64,000 bases of DNA from Omnitrophica bacterium GWA2_41_15 (GCA_919902675.1 CAKKRH010000020.1:5110-69109); one strand, 5' to 3'; positions 46,931 to 62,385 are shown, numbered from the stretch's first letter. The notes: generated by a model not told the origin, from the sequence alone. Made by a program: numbers and translations.

Positions 46931-48136
46931 ATGTTTTTCTGGCGCGATAGACAACAGATAAGAAAGATAAAGGCGGTATTAGAGAAAATTGAGAAAGGCG
47001 ATACCAGCCAGAGAATAAACATTTATTCCCGGGACAGGCTTGGGCGGCTGGCCCAAGCCATAGACAGGGCCATATCCGCTTTAGGCCTTCGGATCTCCGG
47101 GTTAGAGAAAGAGGCTATCCAGGCCCGGGCTATACTCTCCGGGATGTCGGAAGGGGTCCTCGCCATAGGCGATGATGAGCGGATTCTATTGGTTAATCCC
47201 GCCGCCGAGGAGATATTTGGTATCAAGAAACAAGAGGCCGAAGGCAGGCTGTTCTTAGAGGTTGTCCGCAACAATGATATTTCCGAGATTATAAACACAG
47301 CCTTAAAAGAAGGCCGGACTATATCAAGAGAGCTGATCCTGGTCCTGCCGGTGCAAAAGACCTTTAAAATCAACGCCTCTCCTATTCTTGAGAATGAGCG
47401 CGTCTCTGGCTGTGTCCTGGTGGTCCACGACATTACCCAGATGCGCCGGCTGGAGAAGGTTCGCTCGGACTTTGTGGCCAATGTCTCCCACGAGCTAAAG
47501 ACCCCGCTTACCTCTATTAAGGGTTTTGTGGAGACCCTCCTTTCGGGCGCTTTAGAGGAAAAGGAAAACAGCCGGGAATTCTTAAAGATCATCCAGGAAC
47601 AGGCCGATAGGCTGGATGCCTTGAGTAACGATTTGCTGAATCTGGCCTCTTTGGAGGAACCGGGGATAGCCTTTAAGAAAGAAAAGGTGAATTTGAAGGC
47701 CTTGACGGATAAGGCCCTGGCTGTTTTTGACGCGGAATTAAAGAAGAAAGAGATAAAGACCGCCAATGAACTGGCTGAAGACCTCTCTGTGAGCGCGGAT
47801 AAGAATAAGATTGAGCAGGTCTTTACCAATCTCATTGATAACGCCGTTAAATTCAACCGCCAAAATGGGAGCATAACAATCCGCTCCGCGGAATGCCCCG
47901 GCAATAAAATAAAGATTACGGTCAAGGATTCCGGGATAGGAATCCCTGATAGAGACCTCTTGCGCGTGTTTGAGCGCTTCTACCGGGTGGATAAGGCCCG
48001 CTCCCGCGGCTTAGGCGGCACCGGGCTGGGGCTGTCAATAGTCAAGCATATCGTTGAGCTGCACGGCGGCGCGGTGAGCCTGGAAAGCACCGAAGGCCAG
48101 GGCTCGGAATTCTCCTTCACCCTCTCCAAAAAATAG
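46931..48136 (+). CDS. phoR: PhoR-like histidine kinase (PAS, HisKA, HATPase), no TM segment visible
   Basis: PAS 'GVLAIGDDERILLVNPAAEEIFG', H-box 'FVANVSHELKTPLTSIKGFVETL', 'GGTGLGLSIVKHIVELHGG'. The N-terminus is hydrophilic and only 8 nt separate it from phoB. Confidence 0.7.
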   Translation: MFFWRDRQQIRKIKAVLEKIEKGDTSQRINIYSRDRLGRLAQAIDRAISALGLRISGLEKEAIQARAILSGMSEGVLAIGDDERILLVNPAAEEIFGIKKQEAEGRLFLEVVRNNDISEIINTALKEGRTISRELILVLPVQKTFKINASPILENERVSGCVLVVHDITQMRRLEKVRSDFVANVSHELKTPLTSIKGFVETLLSGALEEKENSREFLKIIQEQADRLDALSNDLLNLASLEEPGIAFKKEKVNLKALTDKALAVFDAELKKKEIKTANELAEDLSVSADKNKIEQVFTNLIDNAVKFNRQNGSITIRSAECPGNKIKITVKDSGIGIPDRDLLRVFERFYRVDKARSRGLGGTGLGLSIVKHIVELHGGAVSLESTEGQGSEFSFTLSKK

Positions 48137-48551: not shown

Positions 48552-49814
48552 ATGGTGAAGAAAATATGGATAATGGTTTTAGCGGTATGGTTTTTGGGGC
48601 TTAATCCCTTATGTTTCGCCGCGACTACCCAGGTGGACGCCTTAATTGAGAAGTTGGTGGAGAAAGGTATATTGGACCGCCAGGAGTCAATCAAGCTTAA
48701 GAGCGAGATTGCCGAAGATGAAAAGATAGTCCGGGAAGAAGGGCTGAAGCAGAGCCTCCCTAGCTGGGTTAGGGAAATGAAGTTAAAGGGAGATTTTCGC
48801 CTGCGCTATCAGTATGAGAAGAAAAAGGGCAGTAATACCAACGCCGGAAATACCACCGAGCGCGACCGGGCAAGGATCAGGTTCAGGTTGGGCGCGGAAA
48901 CCAAGGTGAATGACCAGACAAAAGTGCTTTTTGGTCTGGCCAGCGGAGGAACTGACCCCCGCTCCACCAACCAGACCCTGGAAAACAGCTTTGAGCTTAA
49001 GGATATCCGGCTGGACTATGTCTACGGCGAATACGCGCCTTTTAGCTGGGCCGCGTTTTCAGGCGGAAGAATGAAGAACCCGCTCTGGGAACCCGGGGAC
49101 CTGCTTTGGGATACGGATATCAATCCCGAAGGGCTGGCTGCCAAGTTAAGCGGCAAAGTAAACGACCGTTTAGAAGCCTATCTTAATACCGGAACGTTTA
49201 TCCTTGATGAGAACGCGGCCGCCTCCGACCCCTGGATATACGCCTTACAGCCGGGGCTGAAGTGGAAGTTGAATGATAAGGTGAGTTCCAACATCGCTGT
49301 TTCGTATTACGGAAGCAGCCAGGTCAAGGGGGCGATCCTGGACTATTCCGCCGGGAGTAACACCAATAACGGCAGGCGCGGCCTGCTATACGGTCTTAGC
49401 GCCTTTAGCCCGAGTGTGGAATTAGCCGTTAAAGACCCCTTGCGGTCCCTGGGTATAGGCTTGCCTTATGCTTCGTTCTTTGGCGAATATGTGCATAACC
49501 TGCCTTCGGCAAAGAGCGGATACCTTGGCGGACTTAAAATAGGCCACGAAAAGGTAAGTAATGCCAGGCAATGGCAGCTGCGCTATTTTTATAGTATGCT
49601 GGCCACCGACGCCTGGTTAGATATCCTGCCGGATTCGGATAGATACGGCGGAAGGACCGGTATCCGCGGCCATGAACTACTGCTGACCTATGGCCTGGGC
49701 AAGAACTGGAGCCTGGAGTTGGATTACTATCGCACGGATTTGACCACCACCCACGCGGATACCGCGGCGAAAACCGAGAATATCTTCCAGGCGGATTTGA
49801 ATTTCAAGTTTTGA
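48552..49814 (+). CDS. Outer-membrane porin candidate (possibly phosphate-selective by context)
   Basis: Signal peptide, N-terminal coiled segment, alternating beta-like pattern, C-terminal '...ADLNFKF'. Immediately upstream of pstS. Confidence 0.5.
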
Positions 49815-49827
49815 TTATATTGATTAT

Positions 49828-50850
49828 ATGAAAGGAAAAGAGAAAATGAAAAAGTTTCTGAATTTGTTTATAGCAATAAGCGCCCTGATCGGCGGCTTGT
49901 CCGGTCAGGTATTTGCCGCTTCCAAATTGATCAAGGTGGACGGCTCAAGCACGGTGTTTCCCATCACCGAGGCCGTGGCCGAGGAATTCCAAAAGGAAAA
50001 CAGCGGGATAAAGGTGATGGTGGGTATCTCTGGGACCGGCGGCGGGTTTAAAAGGTTTGGCCGGGGAGAGACCGATATCAGCGATGCCTCTCGTCCCATA
50101 AAACAAAAAGAGGTGGATTTGGCCAGGGAAAATAATATTGAATACATAGAGCTTCCGGTGGCCTATGACGGCTTGGCAGTGGTAGTCAGCTCGCGAAATA
50201 CCTGGGCGGATCATCTTACGGTCAAGGAATTAAAGAAGATCTGGGAGCCGGACGCCCAAGGCGCAGTTACTAAATGGAGCCAGATACGGGCGGGTTTTCC
50301 GGATACGGAATTGCGGCTTTACGGCCCGGGGACAGACTCGGGCACATTTGATTATTTTACCGAGGCAATCTGCGCTAAATCCGGGGCCAGCCGCGGCGAT
50401 TATACCGCCAGCGAAGACGATAATGTCCTGGTTGAAGGGGTTTCTTCGGAAGCCAATGGTTTGGGGTATTTCGGCCTGGCCTATTATGAGCAGAATAAGG
50501 ATAAGCTTAAGCTGGTGGCTATTGATGATGAGAATGACGTTAACGGCAGAGGGCCGATCGCGCCGTCAATGGAGACGGTAATGGATTCAACCTATCAGCC
50601 TTTGGCCCGGCCCATATTTATCTATGTGAGCGTCCAGGCCGCCCAAAAGGAAGAGGTAGCAAAGTTTGTTGACTTTTACCTTACCCATGCCGGGCAATTA
50701 GTAAAAGAAGTCGGTTACATACCTTTGCCGGATACCGCGTATCAGGCGGCCTTAGAGCGTTTTAATGCCCGGATCACAGGCTCTGTCTTTGGCAGTAAGG
50801 GCGCGACTATAGGGGTCAAGATTGAAGATTTGCTCAAGCGCAAAAAATAG
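49828..50850 (+). CDS. pstS: Phosphate ABC transporter substrate-binding protein
   Basis: '[18 protein letters not shown]', '[12 protein letters not shown]', 'DISDASRPI'. Confidence 0.85.
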
Positions 50851-50859
50851 CTTAAAGAT

Positions 50860-51756
50860 ATGTTCAAGAAGAAAGAGTTTCAAAAATTAAAGGAATATCT
50901 GATTGAGAAACTGCTTTTTCTCTTTAGCTTAGTTTCCATCCTTGCCACCGTGGGGATTGTCGCGGTCTTATCCTTCGAGACTTTCGCCTTTTTTAATGAG
51001 GTATCGCTTTTAAAGTTCTTTACCGATACCCAGTGGACGCCGCTTTTTGTCAAGAAGCATTTTGGCATCCTGCCGCTTTTGTGCGGGACACTTCTGACTA
51101 CTCTAATTGCGATGCTTATCGCGCTTCCTGTCGGCTTGATAAGCGCGGTGTATTTAAGCGAATATTCCTCTGAAAAGGCAAAAAACATCATCAAACCGAT
51201 AATGGAAATATTAGCGGCAATCCCTACAGTGGTATATGGTTACTTCGCGCTTTTGTTTGTTACCCCATTGTTAAGGAAATGTATCCCCGGGATGAGCGGG
51301 TTTAATTCTCTTTCCAGTGGATTTGTAATGGGGATAATGATTATCCCTTTGATTTCATCTCTAAGCGAAGACGCCTTTCACGCCGTGCCTATGGGCCTGC
51401 GCGAGGCAGGGTATGCCTTAGGCTCAAACAGACTGCAGGTGTCCTTAAGGATAGTTTTTCCGGCTGCCTTTTCCGGGGTCTTGGCGGCCTGCGTTTTGGC
51501 CGTATCCCGGGCGGTGGGTGAGACGATGATTGTGGCTATTGCCGCAGGTCAGCAGCCCCGGTTGACCTTAAATCCCCTGGTTCCGGTTGAGACAATTACC
51601 GCTTATATTGTCCAGGTGAGCTTAGGCGATACTCCCCATGGCAGCCTGGAATACCGCACTATCTTTGCCTGCGGGATGTTTTTGTTTGTGATGACCTATT
51701 TTCTAAATATCGTAAGTTATAAATTAAGAAGGCGTTTTCAACAGGTATATGAATAA
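50860..51756 (+). CDS. pstC: Phosphate ABC transporter permease PstC
   Basis: Polytopic membrane protein with '[23 protein letters not shown]' EAA-type loop. Operon position supports the call. Confidence 0.9.
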
Positions 51757-52657
51757 TAGAGTAATCAATAAAAGATTGGATGGGCTGTTTAAAGCGCTGG
51801 GCATACTGACCACAGTTTTCGGGTTATCGGTGCTTTTGGTCCTGTTTATTGATGTGTTCTTAGACGGGGCCTCAAGGCTAAGCCTTGATTTTTTTACCAG
51901 CTTTCCCTCCCGTAAGCCGGAAGCCGCGGGGATACTTTCGGCCTGGGTGGGCACGATCTGGATTATGGCGGTTACCGGATGTATCGCGCTTCCTTTGGGA
52001 ATAGGTTCAGGCATTTATCTTGAGGAATACGCCCCAAAAAACAGGCTCACCGCTTTGATTGAGATAAGCATCGCTAACCTTGCCGGGGTGCCCTCGGTAA
52101 TTTTCGGGCTTCTGGGGTTAGGGCTTTTTGTGCGCTGGTTTAACTTAGACAGGAGCGTCTTAGCCGGAGGCCTTACTTTAGCCATTTTAGTCTTACCGGT
52201 AATCATTCTTTCCACGCGGGAGGCGCTTCGGGCCATACCTTTTTCCATCAGGGAGGCCTCCTACGCCGTAGGGGCGACCAAGTGGCAGACGGTATATTGC
52301 CAGGTGCTCCCCGCAGCACTCGGCAATATTATGACCGGGGTCATCCTGGCAATGTCCCGGGCAGTGGGGGAGACCGCCCCCTTAATCACCATAGGCGCCC
52401 TTACCTATATCGCTTTCCTGCCCCAGGCTCCGGTTGCTTTTTCGGGAGAGTTCCCTTTTATCCATTTGAGCCTTCAAGGGTTATTTGACCCTTTCACTGC
52501 CCTGCCTATTCAGATATTTAACTGGGTGTCCCGTCCGCAAAAGGGCTTTTCGGTGAATGCCTCGGCAGGGATTATCGTTCTTCTGGGGATTACTTTGGCA
52601 ATGAACAGTGTCGCCATAATTTTACGTTATCGTCAACGAAAAAAGACAAGGTGGTAA
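51749..52657 (+). CDS. pstA: Phosphate ABC transporter permease PstA
   Basis: '[23 protein letters not shown]'. 8-nt overlap with pstC. Confidence 0.9.
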
Positions 52658-53418
52658 AGATGAATAACACAGCTTTCAGCATAAAACAAATGCGCGCCTT
52701 TTACGGAGCAAAAGAGGTGATAAAGGGGGTGGATATTTCCATTATGCCCAATACGGTTACGGCCTTAATCGGGCCTTCCGGATGCGGCAAGAGCACCTTT
52801 ATACGCTCGCTTAACCGCATCAACGACCTGATTCCTTCTTTTCGGATCTCCGGCGATATAATGTACCGGCAGAAGGATATTTATGACAAGGAAACGGATG
52901 TGGTGGAGCTGCGCCGGCGCGTGGGCATGGTGTTCCAGAAACCTAATCCGTTCCCAAAATCCATTTACGAGAATATCGCCTATGGCTTAAGGATTCACGG
53001 CTTAAACATCAAAGACACCATAGATGAGATCGTGGAATCCAGCCTTAAAAAAGCCGCCCTCTGGGATGAGGTAAAGGATAATCTGAAACAAAACGCCCTC
53101 ACTCTTTCCGGAGGCCAGCAGCAGCGGCTCTGCATTGCCCGGACATTAGCCACCCAGCCGGAGGTTATCCTTTTTGATGAGCCATGCTCCGCGCTTGACC
53201 CGATTTCCACCGCCAAGATAGAGGAGCTCATTCATCACTTAAAACAAAATTACACTATCGTTATTGTTACCCACAATATGCAGCAGGCAGCAAGGGTTTC
53301 TGACTATTCCGGATTCTTCCTGCTGGGCGAGCTGATTGAGGTTGGCAGGACCCATGAGATATTCACCGCGCCCAAAGATAAGCGCACGGAAGAGTATATC
53401 ACGGGGAGGTTTGGATAG
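52651..53418 (+). CDS. pstB: Phosphate ABC transporter ATPase PstB (all motifs canonical)
   Basis: Walker A 'GPSGCGKST', Q-loop 'VFQKPNPFP', signature 'LSGGQQQRL', Walker B 'ILFDEP', H-loop 'VTHN'. Confidence 0.95.
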
Positions 53419-53532
53419 CAGTCTCGGGTCACCAGTCGCCAGTCTCGGGTTTCTGGTCTCGAGTCATCGGTGACCGGTGACTCGAGATTGGCGACTGAAA
53501 ACCAGCGACCGACGACCGGAGACTGGAGACTG
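53419..53532. repeat. 114-bp imperfect word palindrome filling the pstB-phoU spacer ('cagtctcgggtc' family)
   Basis: Starts at the base after the pstB stop and ends 5 nt before the phoU ATG. Centre '...ctcgagtcatcggtgac|cggtgactcgag...'. The outer ends 'cagtctcgggtc...' and '...ggagactggagactg' are imperfectly complementary. Confidence 0.75.
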
Positions 53533-53537
53533 ATAAA

Positions 53538-54203
53538 ATGGAACGGCATTTGGACAAGGAATTGCAGGAGCTCAAGACAGAGATTCTGCGTATGGGCGGC
53601 CTGGTGGAAAATGCTATCGGGGTCTCCGTGGAAGCCTTGAAACAATTAGACAGGCTTGCGGCGGAAAAGGTCATCTGCTCTGATAAGGCAATTGACGAGT
53701 TGGAGCTTGGCATTGATGAGAAGAGCCTGGATTTGCTTGCCTTGTATCAGCCTATGGCTGTGGACCTGCGGTTTATCACTATGGCAATGAAGATTTCCAC
53801 CGACCTGGAGCGGATGGCGGATCTGGCAGTTGATATTGCCCAGAGGGTTCTGGAGCTTTCCGGCAAACCCCTGCTTAAGCCTTTGGTGGATATCCCGCGC
53901 TTAGCCGCCGTGGCGCAGGATATGACAAAGGGGGCGATAGATTCCTTTGTCGGGGCGGATGTGTCTTTGGCAAAAAATGTGATTCTGCGCGATACGGAGG
54001 CGGACAGCCTGCGCAATAAAGTTCAGGTTGAATTGATCAATGACTATATAGCCAAAGATAAATCCAGCGTTTCCCGGGCCATCCCCTTGCTTCTGATTGC
54101 CCGCCATCTGGAGCGCGTCTGCGACCACGCCACCAATATCGCCGAAGACGTGATTTATATGGTTGAGGCCAGGGTGGTCAGGCATCATCAGGAAAAGCTG
54201 TAA
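53538..54203 (+). CDS. phoU: Phosphate signalling regulator PhoU
   Basis: 221 aa with two PhoU repeats: 'DLRFITMAMKISTDLERMADLAVDIA' and 'ARHLERVCDHATNIAEDVIYM'. Confidence 0.9.
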   Translation: MERHLDKELQELKTEILRMGGLVENAIGVSVEALKQLDRLAAEKVICSDKAIDELELGIDEKSLDLLALYQPMAVDLRFITMAMKISTDLERMADLAVDIAQRVLELSGKPLLKPLVDIPRLAAVAQDMTKGAIDSFVGADVSLAKNVILRDTEADSLRNKVQVELINDYIAKDKSSVSRAIPLLLIARHLERVCDHATNIAEDVIYMVEARVVRHHQEKL

Positions 54204-54263: not shown

Positions 54264-54506
54264 CTATGGAAGCTTTAGATAAGGGGGAAGGCGTTCAGAC
54301 AGCCATACCTTTATAACGGATTGCCGGGGGATGCCCAGTCGTTTAGCTTCTCGGTCCAAAGAGTGAATCATCCAGATAGGGAAATCAACATTGACCCGTT
54401 TTTGTTCCTGGTTGGGCCTTAGGGCCTTTGAGATGTTAAGATGTTTAGATATATCCTCCCCGGAATCAAACTTTTTGTCAAATTCCTTAGCTTTCATAAA
54501 TATCAA
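54264..54506 (-). CDS. brnA: BrnA-like antitoxin (RHH/CopG-type)
   Basis: 'RVNVDFPIWMIHSLDREAKRLGIPRQSVIKVWLSERL'. Downstream of and overlapping the BrnT-like gene. Confidence 0.65.
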   Translation of the reverse strand: MIFMKAKEFDKKFDSGEDISKHLNISKALRPNQEQKRVNVDFPIWMIHSLDREAKRLGIPRQSVIKVWLSERLPPYLKLP

Positions 54507-54747
54507 CCTCCTCTTGCCTGGCGCGGCGCGCGGAAATGATTCTTATTCTTTCTCCTCTACGCGTAATCACGGCAGACCAATGTTTGTCTTGTATGCGCCC
54601 TATTATCAAAAATCTTGGTTCATCGCCCGTTTTAGCCGGGATTTCAATGAAATCCGGGTTCTTCCATAATAATTGCGCTTCAATAAAATCAATCCCGTGT
54701 TTATTCTTGTTAGTTTGGCTCTTTACGGGGTCATATTCAAATTCCAT
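54487..54747 (-). CDS. brnT: BrnT-like toxin (DUF497)
   Basis: 'MEFEYDPVKSQTNKNKHGIDFIEA...ERIRIISARRARQEE'. Start placed at the internal ATG (54747) rather than the track start at 54786. Confidence 0.75.
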   Translation of the reverse strand: MEFEYDPVKSQTNKNKHGIDFIEAQLLWKNPDFIEIPAKTGDEPRFLIIGRIQDKHWSAVITRRGERIRIISARRARQEEVDIYES

Positions 54748-54895
54748 AGTATATAAAATATACCATAAATATACCTTTATTGTCAACTTTTTTATGGTAT
54801 CAGAGTATCCTTTTTAAAAAATCTAAGATAATTTCTTGCGCAGGCAGGCCGTCTTCGGTTCAGGTCTGTTTTTGTGCCTACTTGCTTCTTTTCTG

Positions 54896-54952: not shown

Positions 54953-55840
54953 ATGCGCTCATTAAGGAGGGATAAAGCAATGCGTTATGTGAAAACAGCA
55001 GCGGTGGCTTCATTAGTTTCTTTGTTTTTGGCGGGTGCGGTGAGGGCGGAAGATCTTAAAGGTTCAATCCAAATCAAGGGCTCAGATACGATGGTCAATT
55101 TGGCTCAAGCCTGGGCTGAAGAGTTCAGCAAGAATAATCCCGGGGTGAACGCCGCGGTAACCGGAGGCGGCTCGGGGACCGGGATTGCGGCGATGATTGC
55201 CGGAACCGCGGATATCGCTATTTCCTCGCGGACAATGAAGGAGAAGGAAATCAATAAGGCCAAACAGAACGGGATTGAGCCTTTTGAGATCAAGGCGGCC
55301 TTAGACGGGCTGGCGGTGGTGGCGCATCCCTCTAATCCGGTCTCCCAGTTGACCATTGACCAGCTCTCGGATATCTTTACCGGTAAGATTAAGAACTGGA
55401 AGGAAGTGGGGGGTAATAACCTGCAGATAGTCATTCTCTCCAGGGAAATAAATTCCGGCACCCATGTTTATTTTAAAGAGCATGTTTTAAGGAAGGGCGA
55501 TGAGAAATCGTTTGAGGAATTTTCTCCCATGGCCCTCTTAATGTCCTCCAGCCAGGCCATTGCCGAGGAGGTCTCCCAGAATCCTAATGCCATCGGTTAT
55601 TACGGGATGGGTTATATCAGCCCAAAACAGAAGGTGATTTCCGTGGCTAAAGACGCTAATTCTCCATATATCGGGCCGGTAATCGAGAATGTGCAGGATA
55701 ATTCTTATCCTATTTCCCGGCCGCTTCTGCTCTATACCAAAGGCCAGCCGCAGGGGATAGTCAAGGCCTTTGTGGACTTTGCTTTATCAACAGAGGGACA
55801 GGAGATTGTGAAGAAGACGGATTTTGTGCCGATAAAATAA
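54953..55840 (+). CDS. pstS: Phosphate ABC transporter substrate-binding protein, second copy
   Basis: 'GSDTMVNLAQAWAEEF', 'GGGSGTGIAAMIAGTADIAISSR'. ATG at 54980 is an alternative start. Confidence 0.8.
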   Translation: MRSLRRDKAMRYVKTAAVASLVSLFLAGAVRAEDLKGSIQIKGSDTMVNLAQAWAEEFSKNNPGVNAAVTGGGSGTGIAAMIAGTADIAISSRTMKEKEINKAKQNGIEPFEIKAALDGLAVVAHPSNPVSQLTIDQLSDIFTGKIKNWKEVGGNNLQIVILSREINSGTHVYFKEHVLRKGDEKSFEEFSPMALLMSSSQAIAEEVSQNPNAIGYYGMGYISPKQKVISVAKDANSPYIGPVIENVQDNSYPISRPLLLYTKGQPQGIVKAFVDFALSTEGQEIVKKTDFVPIK

Positions 55841-55842
55841 AG

Positions 55843-55912
55843 ACGCGAATACGCGCGAATTAAAATATTCGCGAATAAACCTGAAATGGCAGTGATTCGC
55901 GTACACTCGCGT
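55843..55912. repeat. Nested 'cgcgaat/attcgcg' word palindrome (pstS2-pstC2 spacer)
   Basis: Exact 'cgcgaat-taaaat-attcgcg' core, flanked by further cgcgaat/attcgcg words. Confidence 0.6.
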
Positions 55913-55918
55913 TAAAAA

Positions 55919-56791
55919 ATGAACATTCGCTCAGTCAAAGAATTCATTATTGAGAAGCTGATTTTCCTAAGCGGTATAGCTTCCATACTTTTTGTTGTTC
56001 TCATCTTTGTTTTTTTGCTTAAAGAGGGAATAGCTTTCTTTAAGGAGGTTCCGGCCGGGGCTTTTGTCGGCGGGAAATACTGGTATCCCATATCTGATCC
56101 GGAGCGCTTTGGTATATTGCCGCTTATTCTGGGTTCATTGCTGGTTACTTTCGGGGCGATACTTGTTTCGGTGCCGGTAAGCATTGCCTCTGCCTTTTAT
56201 ATCTCTGAGGTAGCCCCGGCTAAATTAAAGGATATTTTAAAGACCGGGATTGAGATGCTGGCGGCTATTCCTTCGGTAGTCCTGGGTTTTATCGGGATGA
56301 CCACCTTGGTTCCCTGGGTAAAGAAAACATTCCACCTGCCTACCGGACTGACTGCCTTATCCGGCTCAATTATGCTGGGGTTGATGGCCATGCCCACCAT
56401 TATCAGTATATCGGAAGACGCCATCAATGCCGTGCCCAAGTCTTACAAGGAAGGGGCCCTGGCCTTGGGGGCGACCCGCTGGCAGGCAATGTATAGGGTA
56501 GTTATTCACGCCGCGCTTCCCGGGATTATTGCCGCCTCAATGCTGGGTATCGGCCGGGTGATCGGCGAGACTATGGCGGTGATGATGATTACCGGAAATG
56601 CCGCGGTCATTCCTCAGACCTTTTTACAGCCGGTGCGCACCCTGACTGCCACTATTGCCGCGGAGATGGGGGAGACGGTGCACGGATCAAACCATTATTA
56701 TTCCCTCTTTGCCATCGGGATAATCCTCTTTATACTCACCTTTATTATCAATATTACCGCGGATATGTTCCTGCACCGGAATAAGAAATGA
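55919..56791 (+). CDS. pstC: Phosphate ABC transporter permease PstC, second copy
   Basis: 'KEGALALGATRWQAMYRVVIHAALPG'. Polytopic membrane protein. Confidence 0.9.
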   Translation: MNIRSVKEFIIEKLIFLSGIASILFVVLIFVFLLKEGIAFFKEVPAGAFVGGKYWYPISDPERFGILPLILGSLLVTFGAILVSVPVSIASAFYISEVAPAKLKDILKTGIEMLAAIPSVVLGFIGMTTLVPWVKKTFHLPTGLTALSGSIMLGLMAMPTIISISEDAINAVPKSYKEGALALGATRWQAMYRVVIHAALPGIIAASMLGIGRVIGETMAVMMITGNAAVIPQTFLQPVRTLTATIAAEMGETVHGSNHYYSLFAIGIILFILTFIINITADMFLHRNKK

Positions 56792-57633
56792 AAACCACCA
56801 CCAAACAAAAAATTGCCTTTAGTATGCTCTTTCTTTGTACCATTATCGTGATCTTGCCGGTTTTGTTTGTTTTAGGGGTGATCATTAAAAATGGCGCTAA
56901 GGGGATAAGCTGGAATTTCTTGACTACTATGCCCTCTGACGGGATGCGCCAGGGAGGGATTTATCCGGCAATCGTCGGGACATTATACCTGGTTTCCTTG
57001 TCAATAGTCTTTTCCCTGCCGGTGGGGGTAATGGCCGCGATATATCTTAATGAATACGCCAAAGATAATCTTTTGACCCGCCTGATTAGGCTGGCGATTG
57101 TAAACCTGGCCGGGGTTTCTTCGGTGGTTTACGGATTATTCGGGCTGGCCTTATTTGTTACCTTTATGAAATTCGGGGTTTCTATTCTTTCCGGGGCGCT
57201 GACTCTGGCGATAATGAACCTGCCGGTGATTATTACTGCCTCGCGGGAGGCCTTGGCCAGCGTGCCTTATTCCTTCCGGGAAGTGAGTCTTTCTTTGGGC
57301 TTAAGCCGCTGGCAGACCATCAGACATTCGGTTTTACCTTTCGCTATCCCCGGCATTCTCACCGGGGCGATTTTGAGCCTGGCCCGGGCCGCCGGGGAAA
57401 CCGCGCCGATTCTCTTTACGGTGGCCGCTTTTTATCTGCCTAATCTGCCTGCTTCCGTATTTGACCAGGCAATGGCTTTGCCTTATCATCTTTATATTAT
57501 TTCCACCCAGATACCCAATATATCCATTCAGACCCGCTATGCCACGGCCTTTGTCCTGGTGGGGATAGTCTTTACGATGAATATTATTGCCGTGGTTCTG
57601 CGCGCGCGTTTGAGGAAAAAGAAGAAATGGTAG
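56788..57633 (+). CDS. pstA: Phosphate ABC transporter permease PstA, second copy
   Basis: 'REVSLSLGLSRWQTIRHSVLPFAIPG'. ATGA overlap with pstC2. Confidence 0.9.
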   Translation: MKTTTKQKIAFSMLFLCTIIVILPVLFVLGVIIKNGAKGISWNFLTTMPSDGMRQGGIYPAIVGTLYLVSLSIVFSLPVGVMAAIYLNEYAKDNLLTRLIRLAIVNLAGVSSVVYGLFGLALFVTFMKFGVSILSGALTLAIMNLPVIITASREALASVPYSFREVSLSLGLSRWQTIRHSVLPFAIPGILTGAILSLARAAGETAPILFTVAAFYLPNLPASVFDQAMALPYHLYIISTQIPNISIQTRYATAFVLVGIVFTMNIIAVVLRARLRKKKKW

Positions 57634-58418
57634 AAAACAAAGGTAAGAGTCAAAAGGAAAAAGGCAAAAGCCAGGTAAAGATTGAAGTTAAAGAGTTGAA
57701 TATCTGGTTTGGAAAGGCTTTGGCCCTAAACAGCCTTAACCTGGAAATTCAGGCCAATGAAATCCTGGGGGTGATTGGCCCGGCCAATAGTGGAAAGACC
57801 TCTTTTTTAAGGCAGTTGAACCGGCTTAATGAGTTAGAGCTGAGTTTTAAAATGAGCGGAGAGGCCTTTCTGGATGCTAAGAATATTAATCAGCTTAAGC
57901 CTGAGGTTTTAAGGAAAAGGGTAGGGATGATTTTTGCTTTGCCCCAGGTCTTGCCGATGTCTATTTACGACAATGTTACCTACGGCCCCAGGATGCACGG
58001 GATAAATAACAAACAAGAGTTAGCCCGGATAACGGAAGAAGCGCTCAAGGCCTCTTTTTTATGGGATGAGGTCAAGGATAGGCTTAAGGAATTTGCCACC
58101 AAGCTTTCCGGAGGCCAGCAGCAACGTTTATGTATATCCCGCACCCTGGCAGTCCGGCCGGAGGTCATACTTTTTGATGAGCCGTGCTCCGGGCTGGACC
58201 CTATTTCCACCGCCAAGGTTGAGGAGTCAATGCTCCGGCTTAAAGAGCAGTATACTATCGTTCTGGTTACCAATAACACCAAACAGGCCGCCAGGGTGGC
58301 TGACCGCACCGCGTTTTTTCTGATGGGTGAGCTGATAGAAATAGATAAGACGCATAAGATATTTACCGCGCCCCGGGACAAGAAGACAGAGGATTATATA
58401 CAGGGGAAGTTTGGATAA
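57627..58418 (+). CDS. pstB: Divergent PstB ATPase: H-loop His replaced by Asn, Q-loop Gln replaced by Ala, signature intact
   Basis: 'GPANSGKTS', 'MIFALPQVLP' (Ala codon 57936-57938 aligns to the Q-loop Gln), 'LSGGQQQRL', 'ILFDEP', 'LVTNNTKQ' (Asn codon 58272-58274 aligns to the H-loop His). Confidence 0.85.
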   Translation: MVENKGKSQKEKGKSQVKIEVKELNIWFGKALALNSLNLEIQANEILGVIGPANSGKTSFLRQLNRLNELELSFKMSGEAFLDAKNINQLKPEVLRKRVGMIFALPQVLPMSIYDNVTYGPRMHGINNKQELARITEEALKASFLWDEVKDRLKEFATKLSGGQQQRLCISRTLAVRPEVILFDEPCSGLDPISTAKVEESMLRLKEQYTIVLVTNNTKQAARVADRTAFFLMGELIEIDKTHKIFTAPRDKKTEDYIQGKFG

Positions 58419-58442
58419 CAGTCTCGGGTCTCGAGTCGCCAG
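58419..58442. repeat. Left-arm fragment of the 'cagtctcgggtc' element
   Basis: 'cagtctcgggtctcgagtcgccag' begins at the base after the pstB2 stop, exactly as at 53419. Confidence 0.6.
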
Positions 58443-58510
58443 CCAACCTTGACCCGCCTCTCCACCTTTGGCGGAGGGCGAGGTCTCGTCAAATTGCTAC
58501 GCAATTTGAC

Positions 58511-58527
58511 GGACGCTCAGGCGAACT
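58511..58527. repeat. Left inverted repeat bounding a 1.48-kb cassette
   Basis: 'ggacgctcaggcgaact'. The reverse complement of 59974-59989 is 'ggacgccaggcgaact' (identical except for one extra t). Preceded by a perfect 10-bp hairpin, cgtcaaattg-ctacg-caatttgacg (58487-58511). Confidence 0.6.
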
Positions 58528-58558
58528 ATAGTATCGCCAATAACAAAAGAGGTGCAAA

Positions 58559-58981
58559 ATGTTTAAAAAAGTGTGGCTTCTGATTTTGTTAGTAGGTAGC
58601 ATTCTAGCAATATATTGCTACGCGCAAGGAAATGAAGAGATTGTGTTTTCTGGAGTTCCAGCTGTCAAAATTAGCGAAGGCGGCGTTAGTCGTGTAGTCG
58701 AAGATTTGAAAGGGGCTAAGGTATCGGAAGCAGAATGCGTAATTACTAAAACCGGCGATAAATATTTTTGGAAGACCAGAAATAATACGGAACTATTTAT
58801 GATTAAAAGCGGCGCTTTTGTGAGTTTTATCGCAACGAATGGGTCAGGCTACGTACGTATTATTCCTTCTGATTTTAAAGAAGCGGCATCTTTAATGGAC
58901 GAAACAGAAAAGAAATACGATTATGCCGAACACTTATTAATAGGTCTTAGGTCTGTCACCTATTACGGGAAGTCAAAATAA
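58559..58981 (+). CDS. Small secreted hypothetical protein
   Basis: Signal peptide 'MFKKVWLLILLVGSILAIYCYA'. RBS 'aaagaggtg'. AT-rich. Confidence 0.5.
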   Translation: MFKKVWLLILLVGSILAIYCYAQGNEEIVFSGVPAVKISEGGVSRVVEDLKGAKVSEAECVITKTGDKYFWKTRNNTELFMIKSGAFVSFIATNGSGYVRIIPSDFKEAASLMDETEKKYDYAEHLLIGLRSVTYYGKSK

Positions 58982-59042
58982 CAATCGGTTGTCATTTAGG
59001 TTATCATTTTTAATTCTAGCAGAAACATATTAAAGGCGTTCA

Positions 59043-59774
59043 ATGTCAGTAATAGTGTATCTTGATGAAAGCGGGGATCATTCACTTGAGCTTGTTGATA
59101 AAGACTTTCCATTCTTTGCTCTTGCAATGTTTATTTGCGAGGAAAAAGTATATAATCAGAAAATCTCCCCAGCGATTAACCAGTTTAAAATGGATTTTTT
59201 TGGGCACGAAGCGGTTATAATTCATTCGCGAGATATACGTAAAGCCCAGCACGATTTCGGAATTCTTACTAATCCTGTTAAGCGAGAAGAATTTTATAAG
59301 AAATTAAACCTGATAATGTCGGATTCAGATTACCAGTTAATAGTTTCTGTGATAAAAAAGCAAGACCATAAGGAAAAGTATGGTATATTTGCAGATAATC
59401 CTTATGACTTGGCAATGACATTCTGTATGGAGAGGCTCTTACCATTACTCGAAGAGAAGGGGCAGGGCAAAGTTCAGCTTATCGCAGAAAGTCGCGGCAA
59501 AAAGGAAGACGATGAGTTAATGCTTAGTTTTTTGCGGATTGCTAATCAAGGTACCGATTATGTGCCCGAAGATCGATTTAAAAAGATAAATTTTAAGTTG
59601 AAATTTGTTCCCAAAATGATGAATGTGGTAGGCACGCAGTTAGCGGATTTGGCAGCCTATCCGGTCGCTCGTTATATACACAATCCTAATAAGCCGAATC
59701 CTGCATATGATATTGTAAAAACGAAATTTTACAAGGGCAAAGGAGGGATACAGGGGTTAAAAATATTCCCATAA
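59043..59774 (+). CDS. DUF3800-family protein
   Basis: N-terminal 'VIVYLDESGDH' and 'IIHSRDIRK', typical of DUF3800 as I recall it. One sampled 60-nt line gives 32% GC. Confidence 0.65.
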   Translation: MSVIVYLDESGDHSLELVDKDFPFFALAMFICEEKVYNQKISPAINQFKMDFFGHEAVIIHSRDIRKAQHDFGILTNPVKREEFYKKLNLIMSDSDYQLIVSVIKKQDHKEKYGIFADNPYDLAMTFCMERLLPLLEEKGQGKVQLIAESRGKKEDDELMLSFLRIANQGTDYVPEDRFKKINFKLKFVPKMMNVVGTQLADLAAYPVARYIHNPNKPNPAYDIVKTKFYKGKGGIQGLKIFP

Positions 59775-59778
59775 AAAC

Positions 59779-59808
59779 AAAAAGCTCCGATTTGCATCAG
59801 AGCTTTTT
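59779..59808 (+). terminator. Candidate rho-independent terminator
   Basis: 'aaaaagctccga-tttgca-tcagagcttttt'. About 10-bp stem with one mismatch, then a T-run. 5 nt after the stop of 59043-59774. Confidence 0.45.
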
Positions 59809-59973
59809 GCCGACCGGGAATCCCCAGTCCCTTGAATCAAATTATATATAAACTATACATGAAAGAACGCTATTTGTCAAGGCTTTTGTTAGAAATTAGC
59901 CCAACCGGATAAATCCGCCTTTATAATGGCGAACAGTTATCTTCACAAGTAGGTGAAGCACTTGAGGTTCTGA

Positions 59974-59989
59974 AGTTCGCCTGGCGTCC
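59974..59989. repeat. Right inverted repeat bounding the cassette
   Basis: 'agttcgcctggcgtcc', partner of 58511-58527. Confidence 0.6.
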
Positions 59990-59997
59990 AGTTCGGG

Positions 59998-60079
59998 CAG
60001 TCTCTGGTTTTTAGTCTTGAGATGGGTGAAAAAACCATAGAATTAATTTTAAAAATGACTGGAGACCGGCGACTAAAAT
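59998..60079. repeat. Decayed copy of the 'cagtctcgggtc' palindrome upstream of pstB3
   Basis: 'cagtctctggtttttagtcttgagatgggtg' parallels 'cagtctcgggtttctggtctcgagtcatcggtg' (53441-53473), with mostly transition differences. It ends 'gactggagaccggcgactaaaat', like 53519-53537. Confidence 0.55.
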
Positions 60080-60081
60080 AT

Positions 60082-60837
60082 ATGTCTAAAATAGTCACTA
60101 AAAATCTAAATCTCTGGTATGGCGCCTTTCAGGCCTTGAAAAGCGTTAACCTGTCTTTCGAGCCAAACCGGATTACCGCGATTATCGGTCCTTCGGGATG
60201 CGGCAAATCCACGCTTTTGAGAGTTTTTAACCGGATGAACGATTTGATTGACGGAGTGCGCCTGGAAGGCGAGGCGCGCATTGATGATGAAAATATTTTA
60301 GGCGGCAATTTTGATGATTTGGTGCGCTTACGCAAAAAAGTAGGCATGGTTTTTCAAAGGCCTAATCCCTTCCCGCTCTCGGTGTATGAAAACATAACTT
60401 TCGGGCTTAAGGTGCACCATTTAGCCAAAAAAAAAGACTTTGACGCCATTGTCCAGGAGGCTTTAGAGTCGGTAATGCTTTGGAAGGATTTAAGGGATAA
60501 ATTGCGTAAAGATGCCTTAGGGTTATCTTTGGAGCAGAAGCAGAGGCTGTGCATTGCCAGAACAATCGCGGTTAAACCGGATATCGTGTTGATGGATGAG
60601 CCCTGCTCGGCCCTTGACCCCCAGGCAACTTTAAAGATAGAAGAGCTGATGCAGAAACTCAAAAAAGATTACACGATTGTGATTGTTACCCATAATATGC
60701 AGCAGGCCGCGCGGGTCTCTGATGATACCGGTTTTATGCTTTTAGGCGAGTTGGTTGAATTTGGAAAGACAGTGGAAATATTTACCGCGCCCAAAGATAA
60801 AAGGACGGAAGAGTATATCACGGGAAGATATGGATAA
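60082..60837 (+). CDS. pstB: PstB paralogue with degenerate ABC signature (LSLEQ); other motifs canonical
   Basis: 'GPSGCGKST', 'VFQRPNPFP', 'LSLEQKQRL' (60523-60537), 'VLMDEP', 'VTHN'. Start moved to ATG 60082 because the track start at 60022 lies inside the repeat. Its 3' end is nearly identical to the pstB1 3' end at the DNA level. Confidence 0.85.
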   Translation: MSKIVTKNLNLWYGAFQALKSVNLSFEPNRITAIIGPSGCGKSTLLRVFNRMNDLIDGVRLEGEARIDDENILGGNFDDLVRLRKKVGMVFQRPNPFPLSVYENITFGLKVHHLAKKKDFDAIVQEALESVMLWKDLRDKLRKDALGLSLEQKQRLCIARTIAVKPDIVLMDEPCSALDPQATLKIEELMQKLKKDYTIVIVTHNMQQAARVSDDTGFMLLGELVEFGKTVEIFTAPKDKRTEEYITGRYG

Positions 60838-60840
60838 ATT

Positions 60841-60975
60841 AAACCCTAAATTCAAAACCCTAAATCCTAAATAAACTCAAAATTCCAAACTCGAAATCTA
60901 AAACAAACTTTTTAGTTTAAAGTTTGTGATTTTGGATTTGTTTAGAGTTTAGAATTTAGTGTTTAGAGTTTATTA
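60841..60975. repeat. About 135-bp imperfect 'ctaaa/tttag' word palindrome filling the pstB3-phoU2 spacer
   Basis: Left arm is rich in 'ccctaaa', 'tcctaaa', 'ctcaaaa'. Right arm is rich in 'tttagag', 'tttagaa', 'tttggat'. Centre 'caaactt...aagtttg'. Confidence 0.6.
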
Positions 60976-60989
60976 AAGCGGAGGAAGAA

Positions 60990-61655
60990 ATGGAACGTAT
61001 ATTTGATGAAGAATTAAAGCAATTGCGTCAATATATATTGACTATGGCATCTTTGGTTGAAGAAGCCATTTTTAAATCAATAGAGGCGCTTAAGCAAAGG
61101 GATAAATCGCTGGCCGAGGCGGTCATCGCCTCCGACAAAAGAATAGACGAGTTGGAGAATAAGATCGATGAATTTTGTCTTGATCTTATCGCCCTTCGCC
61201 AGCCGGTGGCCCAGGACTTGCGTTTTATTACCATGGCGATGCAAAGCGATGCTGACCTTGAGCGGATGGCGGACTTGGCGGTAGACATTGCCCAGAGGGC
61301 GCAAGAGCTCACTGCCCAGCCGCCGTTAAAACCGTTAATTGATATTCCGAAATTGGCGGAAATCGCTCAGAAAATGGTAAAAGAAGCAATCGATGCCTTT
61401 ATTAATAAGGACGTAGAATTAGCAAAGAAGGTTGTCTTTGCGGATAGAGAAGCGGACGCGCTTCGTGATTTGATTCAGAAGGAATTGATTTACGATTATA
61501 TGGTAAAAGACGGCTCAACCGCGCCTCGCGCGGTTCCCTTAATTTTAGTTACCCGCCATTTAGAGCGTATCTGCGACCACGCCACCAATATCGCTGAAGA
61601 CGTGATTTATATGACAGACGCGAAGATGGTCAGGCATCATCCTGAGAAACTCTGA
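60990..61655 (+). CDS. phoU: PhoU, second copy
   Basis: 221 aa, colinear with 53538-54203. A run of about 44 nt differs from copy 1 at only one position ('gaccacgccaccaatatcgc.gaagacgtgatttatatg'). Confidence 0.9.
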   Translation: MERIFDEELKQLRQYILTMASLVEEAIFKSIEALKQRDKSLAEAVIASDKRIDELENKIDEFCLDLIALRQPVAQDLRFITMAMQSDADLERMADLAVDIAQRAQELTAQPPLKPLIDIPKLAEIAQKMVKEAIDAFINKDVELAKKVVFADREADALRDLIQKELIYDYMVKDGSTAPRAVPLILVTRHLERICDHATNIAEDVIYMTDAKMVRHHPEKL

Positions 61656-61692
61656 TACGCGTATAGCATATGGTAAAACAATAAGTAATTAT

Positions 61693-62385
61693 ATGGGGAA
61701 AGAAGAAAACTATAAAAGAATCAAGAAATTCTGCCTTAATTGGGGCGCGGATTTATTCGGCACAGCCGATGTTTCTTCGCTTAAGGATGGCTTTGCCGTT
61801 TCAGTTAAGGCCGCCAAAGATTTAAACACCGCGATTTCTCTGGGGGTGCGGGTTTCGTCAGGGGTTCTTTCTGAAATCGAAAATCAACCGACCAAGCTTT
61901 ACTTTCATCACTATCGCGTGGTAAATATGTTTCTGGATCAGCTGGCCATGCGCCTGAGTAACTTTATCCAGAACTCAGGCTCTCAAGCCCTGCCTATCCC
62001 GGCTTCAATAATCGTGGACTGGCAAAGACAGACCGCCCATCTTTCGCATAAACATATAGGATATTTAGCCGGCATGGGCTGGATAGGCCGGAATAATCTA
62101 TTGGTGAATAGGGCCCTGGGCAGTCAATTCCGCCTGATAACCGTGCTTACGGATATGCCTTTAAAATACGATAAACCGGAAAAAGAAGATTGTGGAAATT
62201 GCCGGGCTTGTGTGGTAGTATGTCCGGTAAAGGCTATAAAGGAAAAAAAAGAGGATTTTGACCATTTGGGCTGCTTTGAACTGCTTAAGGATTTTCAGAG
62301 GCAGAAAATTGTAGACCAGTATATCTGCGGGATATGCGTTAATATTTGCCGGGGGAAAAATGCCAAAAGCCGCCAATCATATTGA
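61693..62385 (+). CDS. QueG-like / reductive-dehalogenase-superfamily Fe-S protein
   Basis: 'AGMGWIGRNNLLVNRALGSQFRLITVLTDMPL' followed by the ferredoxin motif 'CGNCRACVVVCPVKAI'. Shorter than typical QueG. Confidence 0.45.
   Translation: MGKEENYKRIKKFCLNWGADLFGTADVSSLKDGFAVSVKAAKDLNTAISLGVRVSSGVLSEIENQPTKLYFHHYRVVNMFLDQLAMRLSNFIQNSGSQALPIPASIIVDWQRQTAHLSHKHIGYLAGMGWIGRNNLLVNRALGSQFRLITVLTDMPLKYDKPEKEDCGNCRACVVVCPVKAIKEKKEDFDHLGCFELLKDFQRQKIVDQYICGICVNICRGKNAKSRQSY

Follow-up and report, generated by a model that had tools for sequence, protein, structure and literature searches.

Must both ATP sites of a phosphate importer be equivalent? This question is raised by a locus of Omnitrophica bacterium GWA2_41_15 (GCA_919902675.1, CAKKRH010000020.1:5110-69109), of which a stretch of 64,000 nucleotides, hereafter the window, was analysed. 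Database matches identify the organism as a Candidatus Omnitrophota metagenome-assembled genome (MAG). The window carries two tandem phosphate-transport operons, both on the + strand, and the second of them encodes two PstB-type ATPase subunits of the ATP-binding cassette (ABC) family, PstB2 and PstB3. An original prediction, made from the sequence of the window, had proposed that the motifs of these two proteins have degenerated in a complementary manner, so that a B2/B3 heterodimer would possess one consensus and one degenerate ATP site. Our comparative analysis leads us to consider it likely that PstB2 and PstB3 form an obligate heterodimer with a single power site. Our confidence is higher for the heterodimer itself and lower for the catalytic silence of its second site. 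The features on which the argument depends are the following (positions are counted from the first letter of the window):

52651-53418, + strand: pstB1, the canonical PstB gene of the first operon, not part of the B2/B3 pair (TIGR00972, 414.4 bits)
54953-55840, + strand: pstS2, phosphate-binding protein of the second operon (TIGR02136, 267.7 bits, cut-off 206.6)
55919-56791, + strand: pstC2, permease (TIGR02138, 288.8 bits, cut-off 196.45)
56788-57633, + strand: pstA2, permease, with a 7-nt overlap with the start of pstB2 (TIGR00974, 285.2 bits, cut-off 193.45)
57627-58418, + strand: pstB2, B2-type ATPase subunit (TIGR00972, 327.1 bits, and motifs)
57777-57803, + strand: Walker A of PstB2, GPANSGKTS as compared with GPSGCGKST, with Lys and Thr kept and with the B2-specific changes Cys-to-Ser and Ser-to-Thr
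57936-57938, + strand: Ala104 of PstB2 at the position of the Q-loop Gln (IFALP), codon GCT
58104-58118, + strand: signature of PstB2, consensus LSGGQ
58167-58199, + strand: Walker B of PstB2, ILFDEP (Asp184 and catalytic Glu185 kept), with the D-loop SGLD (Ala-to-Gly)
58272-58274, + strand: Asn216 of PstB2 at the position of the H-loop His (VTNN), codon AAT
60022-60837, + strand: pstB3, B3-type ATPase subunit (TIGR00972, 368.1 bits, and motifs)
60187-60213, + strand: consensus Walker motif of PstB3
60523-60537, + strand: signature of PstB3, LSLEQ, with Leu170 and Glu171 in place of the two glycines
60990-61655, + strand: phoU2 (TIGR02135, 208.6 bits, cut-off 130.25)

The second operon holds pstS, pstC, pstA and phoU genes around its two ATPase genes, in the order pstS2-pstC2-pstA2-pstB2-[insertion]-pstB3-phoU2. 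The motifs of the three PstB proteins of the window were aligned with those of Escherichia coli PstB, and PstB1 served as an independent canonical reference. PstB2 and PstB3, each about 50% identical to E. coli PstB, run gap-free through all motifs, and the alignment contains no gap in or near any of them. Mis-alignment of the motifs was rejected on the basis of this gap-free alignment, pairwise extraction against PstB1 giving the same residues.

All motifs of PstB1 are canonical, as had been predicted. PstB2 combines an intact LSGGQ with Ala at the Q-loop and Asn at the H-loop, while PstB3 deviates in its signature and has canonical Walker A, Q-loop, Walker B, D-loop and H-loop (VTHN) motifs. 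The residues proposed originally for both proteins hold against the reference PstB, and their coordinates are exact to the codon. Walker A (GxxxxGK[ST]) and Walker B (hhhhDE) are present in both PstB2 and PstB3; the combination of a Q-loop Gln, an LSGGQ signature and an H-loop His within one chain is found in PstB1 and is absent from PstB2 and PstB3. Three further peculiarities of PstB2 had escaped the original prediction: the D-loop SGLD as compared with the usual SALD, the modified Walker A, and the segment past the H-loop, which reads NNTKQ as compared with HNMQQ. With respect to the whole-protein equivalog cut-off of the NCBIfam family TIGR00972 (PstB; 343.2 bits), PstB1 and PstB3 score above and PstB2 just below, TIGR00972 remaining by far the best family for PstB2.

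In a head-to-tail ABC dimer, each ATP site is built from the A-loop, Walker A, Walker B, Q-loop and H-loop of one subunit and from the signature of the other. If this standard geometry, taken from established ABC structures, is assumed for PstB2 and PstB3, a B2/B2 dimer would have two sites devoid of Q-loop Gln and H-loop His, and in a B3/B3 dimer the signature of both sites would be acidic and glycine-less. Of the three combinations, only B2/B3 would give one all-consensus site, in which the P-loop side of PstB3 faces the LSGGQ of PstB2. The other site would collect every deviation, all of them mapping to this one composite site. The site arithmetic of the original prediction is therefore correct by motif bookkeeping. 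The idea that such a pattern is unusual for PstB also survives comparison with E. coli, which uses two identical PstB, and with Enterococcus faecalis, where the motifs are identical and canonical. As for the proposed likeness to heterodimeric exporters, the deviations do fall within one composite site, but the Walker B Glu, which is altered in TM287/288, TAP1 and CFTR, is kept in PstB2 and its relatives.

The substitutions of PstB2 are by no means a peculiarity of this genome. Among its closest 120 database relatives (70-100% identity), 120 out of 120 carry FA[LM]P, VTNN and SGLD together with an intact LSGGQ, and a second search, with a profile of 22 B2-type proteins from other phyla, retrieved another 120 proteins, all 120 with the same pattern. 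In total, these two database searches recovered the B2 changes in 240 of 240 homologues, reaching Verrucomicrobiota, Kiritimatiellales, Bacteroidota and Ignavibacteriales. Residues were then counted in 106 full-length B2-B3 pairs. On the B2 side, the A-loop aromatic (104/106), the Walker A Lys (106/106) and the Walker B Asp and Glu (106/106) are kept, and the changed residues are nearly as constant, the Q-loop position being Ala in 103 of the pairs, while the H-loop Asn and the D-loop Gly each occur in 105. SGGQ is invariant in all 81 B2-type proteins compared. On the B3 side, the P-loop-side motifs (Walker A Lys, Q-loop Gln, Walker B Asp/Glu and H-loop His) are intact in every pair (106/106). 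The fourth signature position, that of the second glycine, is occupied by Glu in 90 cases, Asp in 13, Tyr in two and Gly in one, and is thus acidic in 103 of 106; the third position, that of the first glycine, is Leu in 85 of 106.

The columns fixed specifically in B2-type proteins are, in E. coli numbering, T39L, C47S, S50T, Q98A, F103L, V115P, A183G, I207L, H210N and Q213K, and all except V115P lie within the Walker A, Q-loop, D-loop or H-loop region. In B3-type proteins the only recurrent change is that of the signature. The ratio of non-synonymous to synonymous substitution rates (dN/dS) between the window and its closest relative, locus L001, is 0.11 for pstB2 and 0.05 for pstB3. The substitutions are far beyond chance, and the motif changes are conserved states under purifying selection, not decay.

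Several variants of the pattern were noticed. The B2-type proteins of three loci (L052, L067 and L075) also alter the Walker A glycine that precedes the Lys (GPSGSAKTT, GPAGSAKTT), which takes them further from the consensus within the same site. In one sub-lineage (L112-L114, L116, L122, L136 and L155), the B2 protein has VSNN together with FA[KVT]P or LS[TK]P, and the B3 protein has LTEEQ, LSEE[MI] or LSDEQ, that is, two acidic signature residues; both faces of the non-consensus site co-vary here at the lineage level. An intermediate-looking pair is encoded at positions 2910-4765 of locus L149: its first gene has FALP (Q-to-A) with the H-loop His kept, and its second gene has ISLGQ, in which the first glycine alone is lost, and VTHS. 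In a search of 1.84 billion representatives of 50% identity clusters, B2-type proteins made up about nine of the top 150 representatives, and several representatives carry LS[LIV]GQ signatures (P0146, P0147, P0194 and P0208, listed with L149). The L149 pair and the LS[LIV]GQ variants may represent earlier steps towards, or parallel cases of, PstB asymmetry.

If the two proteins work together, their genes should travel together, and the original prediction had named co-occurrence in related genomes as a check. We collected 80 loci by scanning a genome collection with PstB2 and 80 by scanning metagenomes with PstB3, and typed every PstB-like open reading frame (ORF) in them by its motifs. These are the best 80 matches of each scan rather than a random sample, and the counts imply no frequency among all pst operons. 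The loci of the PstB2 scan are labelled as Omnitrophota, Aminicenantes/Acidobacteriota, Planctomycetota, Elusimicrobiota/Endomicrobia, Desantisbacteria, Margulisbacteria, Kiritimatiellota, Verrucomicrobiota, Lentisphaerae, Bacteroidota/Ignavibacteria, Spirochaetota, Hydrogenedentota and Eubacteriales. The 160 loci contain 116 adjacent gene pairs in which B2 is followed by B3, so that two non-identical ATPase subunits are encoded together. A B3-type gene comes directly after 116 of the 120 B2-type genes with downstream sequence, and a B2-type gene precedes all 116 B3-type genes with upstream sequence; co-occurrence thus holds in both directions, with four B2-only loci. Eight genes were left unscored: four B2-type genes at a contig end, the B2-type gene of L016, whose partner breaks off ahead of its signature, and three B3-type genes at contig ends. 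Of the canonical PstB genes, 36 have enough sequence upstream to be judged, and no B2-type gene precedes any of them.

The paired genes are tightly packed, with a median distance of 26 nt between aligned cores and many overlaps. Wherever a related locus extends far enough upstream, the B2/B3 pair is preceded by PstS-PstC-PstA; most loci show the order pstS-pstC-pstA-B2-B3-phoU, and PhoU follows B3 in most of them. In a neighbour-joining tree, 81 B2-type and 69 B3-type proteins each group in one clade without intruders, and each type is therefore a monophyletic clade spanning multiple phyla. Genomic pairing, operon order and the two clean clades together indicate that the B2/B3 pair goes back to an old duplication and has been passed on as one unit.

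This comparative evidence gives good support to the heterodimer reading, and from it we infer the physical complex. PstB2 and PstB3 would be the two ATPase subunits of a single importer, PstS2-PstC2-PstA2-PstB2-PstB3, and would sit as an obligate head-to-tail heterodimer on the PstC2/PstA2 membrane pair. The consensus site, made of the A-loop, Walker A, Q-loop Gln, Walker B and H-loop His of PstB3 and the LSGGQ of PstB2, would hydrolyse the ATP that drives transport. The second site would combine Walker A and Walker B of PstB2, with Ala in the Q-loop and Asn in the H-loop, and the LSLEQ of PstB3, which places Glu on the second glycine. It probably still binds nucleotide, since PstB2 keeps the A-loop aromatic, the Walker A Lys and the Walker B Asp/Glu. 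Hydrolysis at this site would be poor or absent, as the precedents of CFTR G551D/E and Pdr5 suggest, and the site would not close in the standard way on the ATP gamma-phosphate. It would then have a structural or regulatory role, and about one ATP would be consumed per cycle.

Covariation was analysed in 98 non-redundant B2-B3 pairs: the D-loop and signature of B3 covary most with the Walker A, Q-loop and H-loop columns of B2 (the B3 signature window ranks 10 out of 233; Mann-Whitney p = 0.048). The direction fits this picture, but the signal is weak and confounded by phylogeny and is taken as suggestive only. Several observations weigh against the picture. The catalytic Glu of PstB2 is invariant, unlike that of most known degenerate sites. 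In the second nucleotide-binding domain (NBD2) of MRP1, replacement of the H-loop His by Asn or Gln left transport wild-type-like, and the site on the PstB2 side could therefore retain activity. Canonical PstB1 is encoded 5 kb upstream and offers a possible alternative partner. Four B2-type genes, all from Elusimicrobiota/Endomicrobia (L011, L043, L070 and L079), have no B3-type gene within their locus. These loci carry pstS-pstC-pstA-B2, and two of them (L043 and L079) extend 10 kb downstream; their partner may lie elsewhere in the genome, or they may be true exceptions. In L043, the genes next after B2 are on the opposite strand. Finally, in the window itself 1.6 kb lie between the two genes, including a terminator-like hairpin past a DUF3800 gene, and co-expression of pstB2 and pstB3 is therefore not assured here.

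The alternative that survives best, although we regard it as quite unlikely, retains the B2/B3 heterodimer and makes both of its sites catalytically competent, the substitutions serving to tune kinetics or coupling. Asn could for example stand in for His, and the Glu of PstB3 could take a catalytic or Mg-binding role. The MRP1 mutants are in line with this, the complete conservation of the Walker A Lys and Walker B Asp/Glu of PstB2 would be unusual for a dead site, and the replacing residues (Ala, Asn and Glu/Asp) are strictly conserved rather than drifting. However, three elements that touch the gamma-phosphate or the attacking water are altered together in one composite site, an acidic residue at the signature glycine stops ATP-driven closure in CFTR G551D/E, and the comparable LNVEQ signature of Pdr5 belongs to a non-hydrolytic site.

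It is very unlikely, in our view, that PstB2 and PstB3 act separately, either as alternative homodimers or as a true ATPase with an accessory or regulatory paralogue, in the manner of PstB1 and PstB2 of E. faecalis. In that bacterium the adjacent pstB genes are non-equivalent and excess PstB2 can replace PstB1; the four B2-only loci and the physical split of the pair in the window would also fit such an arrangement. Against it, the homodimers would have either two acidic glycine-less signatures or two sites lacking both Q-loop Gln and H-loop His, and the near-perfect reciprocal co-occurrence of overlapping or abutting genes argues for a 1:1 complex.

A pairing of PstB2 or PstB3 with canonical PstB1 (B1/B2 or B1/B3), on either permease pair, is highly improbable. 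PstB1 is admittedly encoded in a tandem pst operon about 5 kb upstream, at least eight Omnitrophota-type loci (L002, L004, L005, L012, L013, L018, L019 and L032) share this layout, and a B1/B2 or B1/B3 dimer would also hold one consensus site. Nevertheless, most B2/B3 loci of other phyla have no canonical PstB within 10 kb, the adjacency of B2 and B3 is far tighter than any link to B1, and the complementary pattern is explained only if B2 and B3 face each other. There remains a negligible probability that the substitutions reflect sequencing or assembly artefacts or the decay of redundant paralogues (incipient pseudogenes), as the sub-threshold TIGR00972 score of PstB2 and the presence of a canonical system in the same genome might suggest, but decay is refuted by the conservation data and dN/dS (the same substitutions in 240/240 homologues from many phyla, at 0.05-0.11), and the ORFs are intact with all other motifs invariant.

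The obligate B2/B3 heterodimer with one power site can be carried a step further, on a speculative note. The pair could stand for an ancient class of type I importers, present in multiple phyla, that run on an obligatorily asymmetric ATPase with a purpose-built rather than simply dead non-consensus site and spend one ATP per cycle. The conserved carboxylate in the signature of B3, together with the Asn and Ala of B2, could occupy or exclude the position of the gamma-phosphate, and the site could hold the dimer together with ADP or without nucleotide, or could sense cytoplasmic nucleotide or phosphate and signal this state to PhoU. Taken jointly, these proposals are rather unlikely to be all correct. 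If they were, one ATP per cycle would suit the carrier lineages, which are mostly anaerobic and energy-limited.

The remaining features of the locus are the following:

46931-48136: phoR-like histidine kinase ORF, assigned from sequence and not family-scanned
48552-49814: outer-membrane porin gene of the Porin_5 family (Porin_5 match, E = 9e-48)
49828-53418, + strand: first operon, pstS1-pstC1-pstA1-pstB1
53538-54203, + strand: phoU1
54264-54786, minus strand: BrnT/BrnA-like toxin-antitoxin pair between the two pst operons
58419-60021, + strand: lineage-specific insertion of 1.6 kb with two ORFs, splitting pstB2 from pstB3
58559-58981: hypothetical ORF, signal-peptide-like, without family match
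59043-59774: DUF3800 ORF (DUF3800, E = 3e-11)

The Porin_5 gene lies directly 5' of pstS1 and 3' of the phoR-like kinase ORF, and may encode a phosphate-regulon porin. Of the toxin-antitoxin pair, the toxin matches BrnT (PF04365, E = 1.5e-25) and its partner is a CopG/BrnA-like antitoxin.

Loci L001, L002 and L004, the closest relatives, lack the insertion and have a gap of 50-105 nt between pstB2 and pstB3; the GC content of the insertion is 0.42 as compared with about 0.49. Directly past the stop of pstB1 (53419-53475) stand two copies of a short repeat, CAGTCTCGGGT(n)GGTC...; one more copy comes directly past the stop of pstB2 (58419-58454) and another lies just before pstB3 (59998-60033), these last two bracketing the insertion. 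The last 33 nt of pstB1 and pstB2 and the 24 nt that follow are 82% identical. This repeat may be a target of recombination or insertion, or a regulatory element. At 59781-59809, 3' of the DUF3800 ORF, the sequence AAAAAGCTCCGATTTGCATCAGAGCTTTTT forms a 9-bp stem, including A/T pairs, with a 12-nt loop and a T-run. Seen by eye, it looks like a two-way terminator; a scan of the insertion for consensus terminators reported none, the 12-nt loop of this hairpin exceeding the loop limit of the scan. The hairpin could uncouple the transcription of pstB3-phoU2 from that of pstS2C2A2B2.

Despite the insertion, pstB3 is intact, its product being 95.9% identical to PstB3 of L001. The DNA identity to L001 across 55642-61843 is mosaic: 87% in pstC2, 94% at the start of pstA2, 80% at the end of pstA2 and in pstB2, 91% in pstB3 and 90% in phoU2. 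Synonymous divergence (dS) from L001 is likewise unequal, at 1.03 for pstB2 and 0.42 for pstB3. Both observations suggest that recombination has taken place within the operon, perhaps in connection with the insertion. The true start of pstB3 is probably the ATG at 60082 (MSKIV...) rather than that at 60022, because its relatives begin with MSKI and DNA similarity to L001 starts at 60076; the ATG at 60055 is another candidate.

The interest of the B2/B3 pair extends beyond this locus. Asymmetric ATP sites have been studied almost exclusively in exporters and channels (TAP, CFTR, MRP1, TM287/288 and Pdr5), and the pair provides such a case in nature, strongly conserved and set in a simple type I importer. 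Its symmetric counterpart, PstSCAB of E. coli, has structures in several states, allowing for a clean comparison that bears on the purpose of a non-consensus site, be it energy economy, subunit engagement or regulation. There is also a practical side. Both types are labelled as phosphate ABC transporter ATP-binding protein or PstB in the source annotations, so that metabolic reconstructions of Omnitrophota, Elusimicrobiota, Kiritimatiellota, Verrucomicrobiota, Bacteroidota and other phyla show neither their pairing nor the likely stoichiometry of one ATP.

Compared with known systems, the second operon of the window follows the operon logic of E. coli (pstS, pstC, pstA and pstB, with phoU). 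In E. coli PstSCAB (PDB 9k3x, 9k3y and 9k3s), two identical PstB chains are bound, one to PstA and one to PstC, and no regulatory domain keeps the ATPase subunits together at rest. E. coli thus uses one canonical PstB twice and has two consensus sites, whereas here two diverged genes would by sequence provide a single one. The tandem PstB1/PstB2 of Firmicutes (E. faecalis; PstBA/PstBB in Bacillus subtilis) are closer in layout, with two adjacent pstB paralogues in one pst-phoU operon, and a heteromeric PstBA-PstBB complex has been assumed in structure-prediction work. The E. faecalis proteins are functionally non-equivalent, and the study that describes them states that earlier work had not compared tandem pstB genes. 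However, the tandem PstBs of Firmicutes are canonical and no complementary degeneration has been reported for them, whereas both paralogues deviate here.

Reviews present the combination of a consensus ATP site with a degenerate one as a feature of exporters. In the literature, degenerate sites among importers were found to be noted only for the fused proteins RbsA and NupO. We found no description of a degenerate PstB pair in the open-access literature, an absence that is no proof; the principle is familiar, and its conserved and widespread occurrence in a Pst importer appears to be unreported. Judged by sequence, RbsA and NupO, bacterial ABC importers of the CUT2 type, likewise have one degenerate ATP site out of two. 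They differ in being of another importer class, in carrying both ATPase domains on a single polypeptide and in having lost the Walker A Lys or Walker B residues. According to a review, one intact ATP site suffices in the histidine type I importer.

The arrangement in exporters (TM287/288, TmrAB, BmrCD, PatAB and TAP1/2) and in CFTR and MRP1 is similar in that one subunit deviates on its P-loop side and its partner in the signature, so that a single composite site is affected and one consensus site is left. These, however, are type IV exporters or channels whose membrane domains are fused, whereas the ATPase subunits of the type I importer are free-standing. The hallmark of their degenerate sites, and the classical one in TM287/288 and TAP1/2, is replacement of the Walker B catalytic Glu, often together with the H-loop His; in PstB2 and its relatives, DEP is retained in 106 of 106 proteins and it is the Q-loop Gln and H-loop His that have changed. 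The signature of PstB3 is closest to that of yeast Pdr5 and Candida Cdr1, where LNVEQ, like LSLEQ, has a hydrophobic residue followed by Glu in place of the two glycines and the opposite H-loop is changed. Pdr5, a single-chain eukaryotic exporter, also lacks the Walker A Lys and the Walker B Glu, and the resemblance is convergent. Finally, Glu171 of PstB3 occupies the position of the CFTR mutations G551D and G551E, which likewise place an acidic side chain on the second signature glycine. In CFTR, the acidic residue blocks ATP-dependent closure of the site through repulsion of the gamma-phosphate, an effect that Ser or Lys does not have. There, the change is pathogenic and affects the consensus site; in PstB3 it is the conserved wild-type state of a non-consensus site, which makes the importer a natural system for learning how a site with such a residue stays functional.

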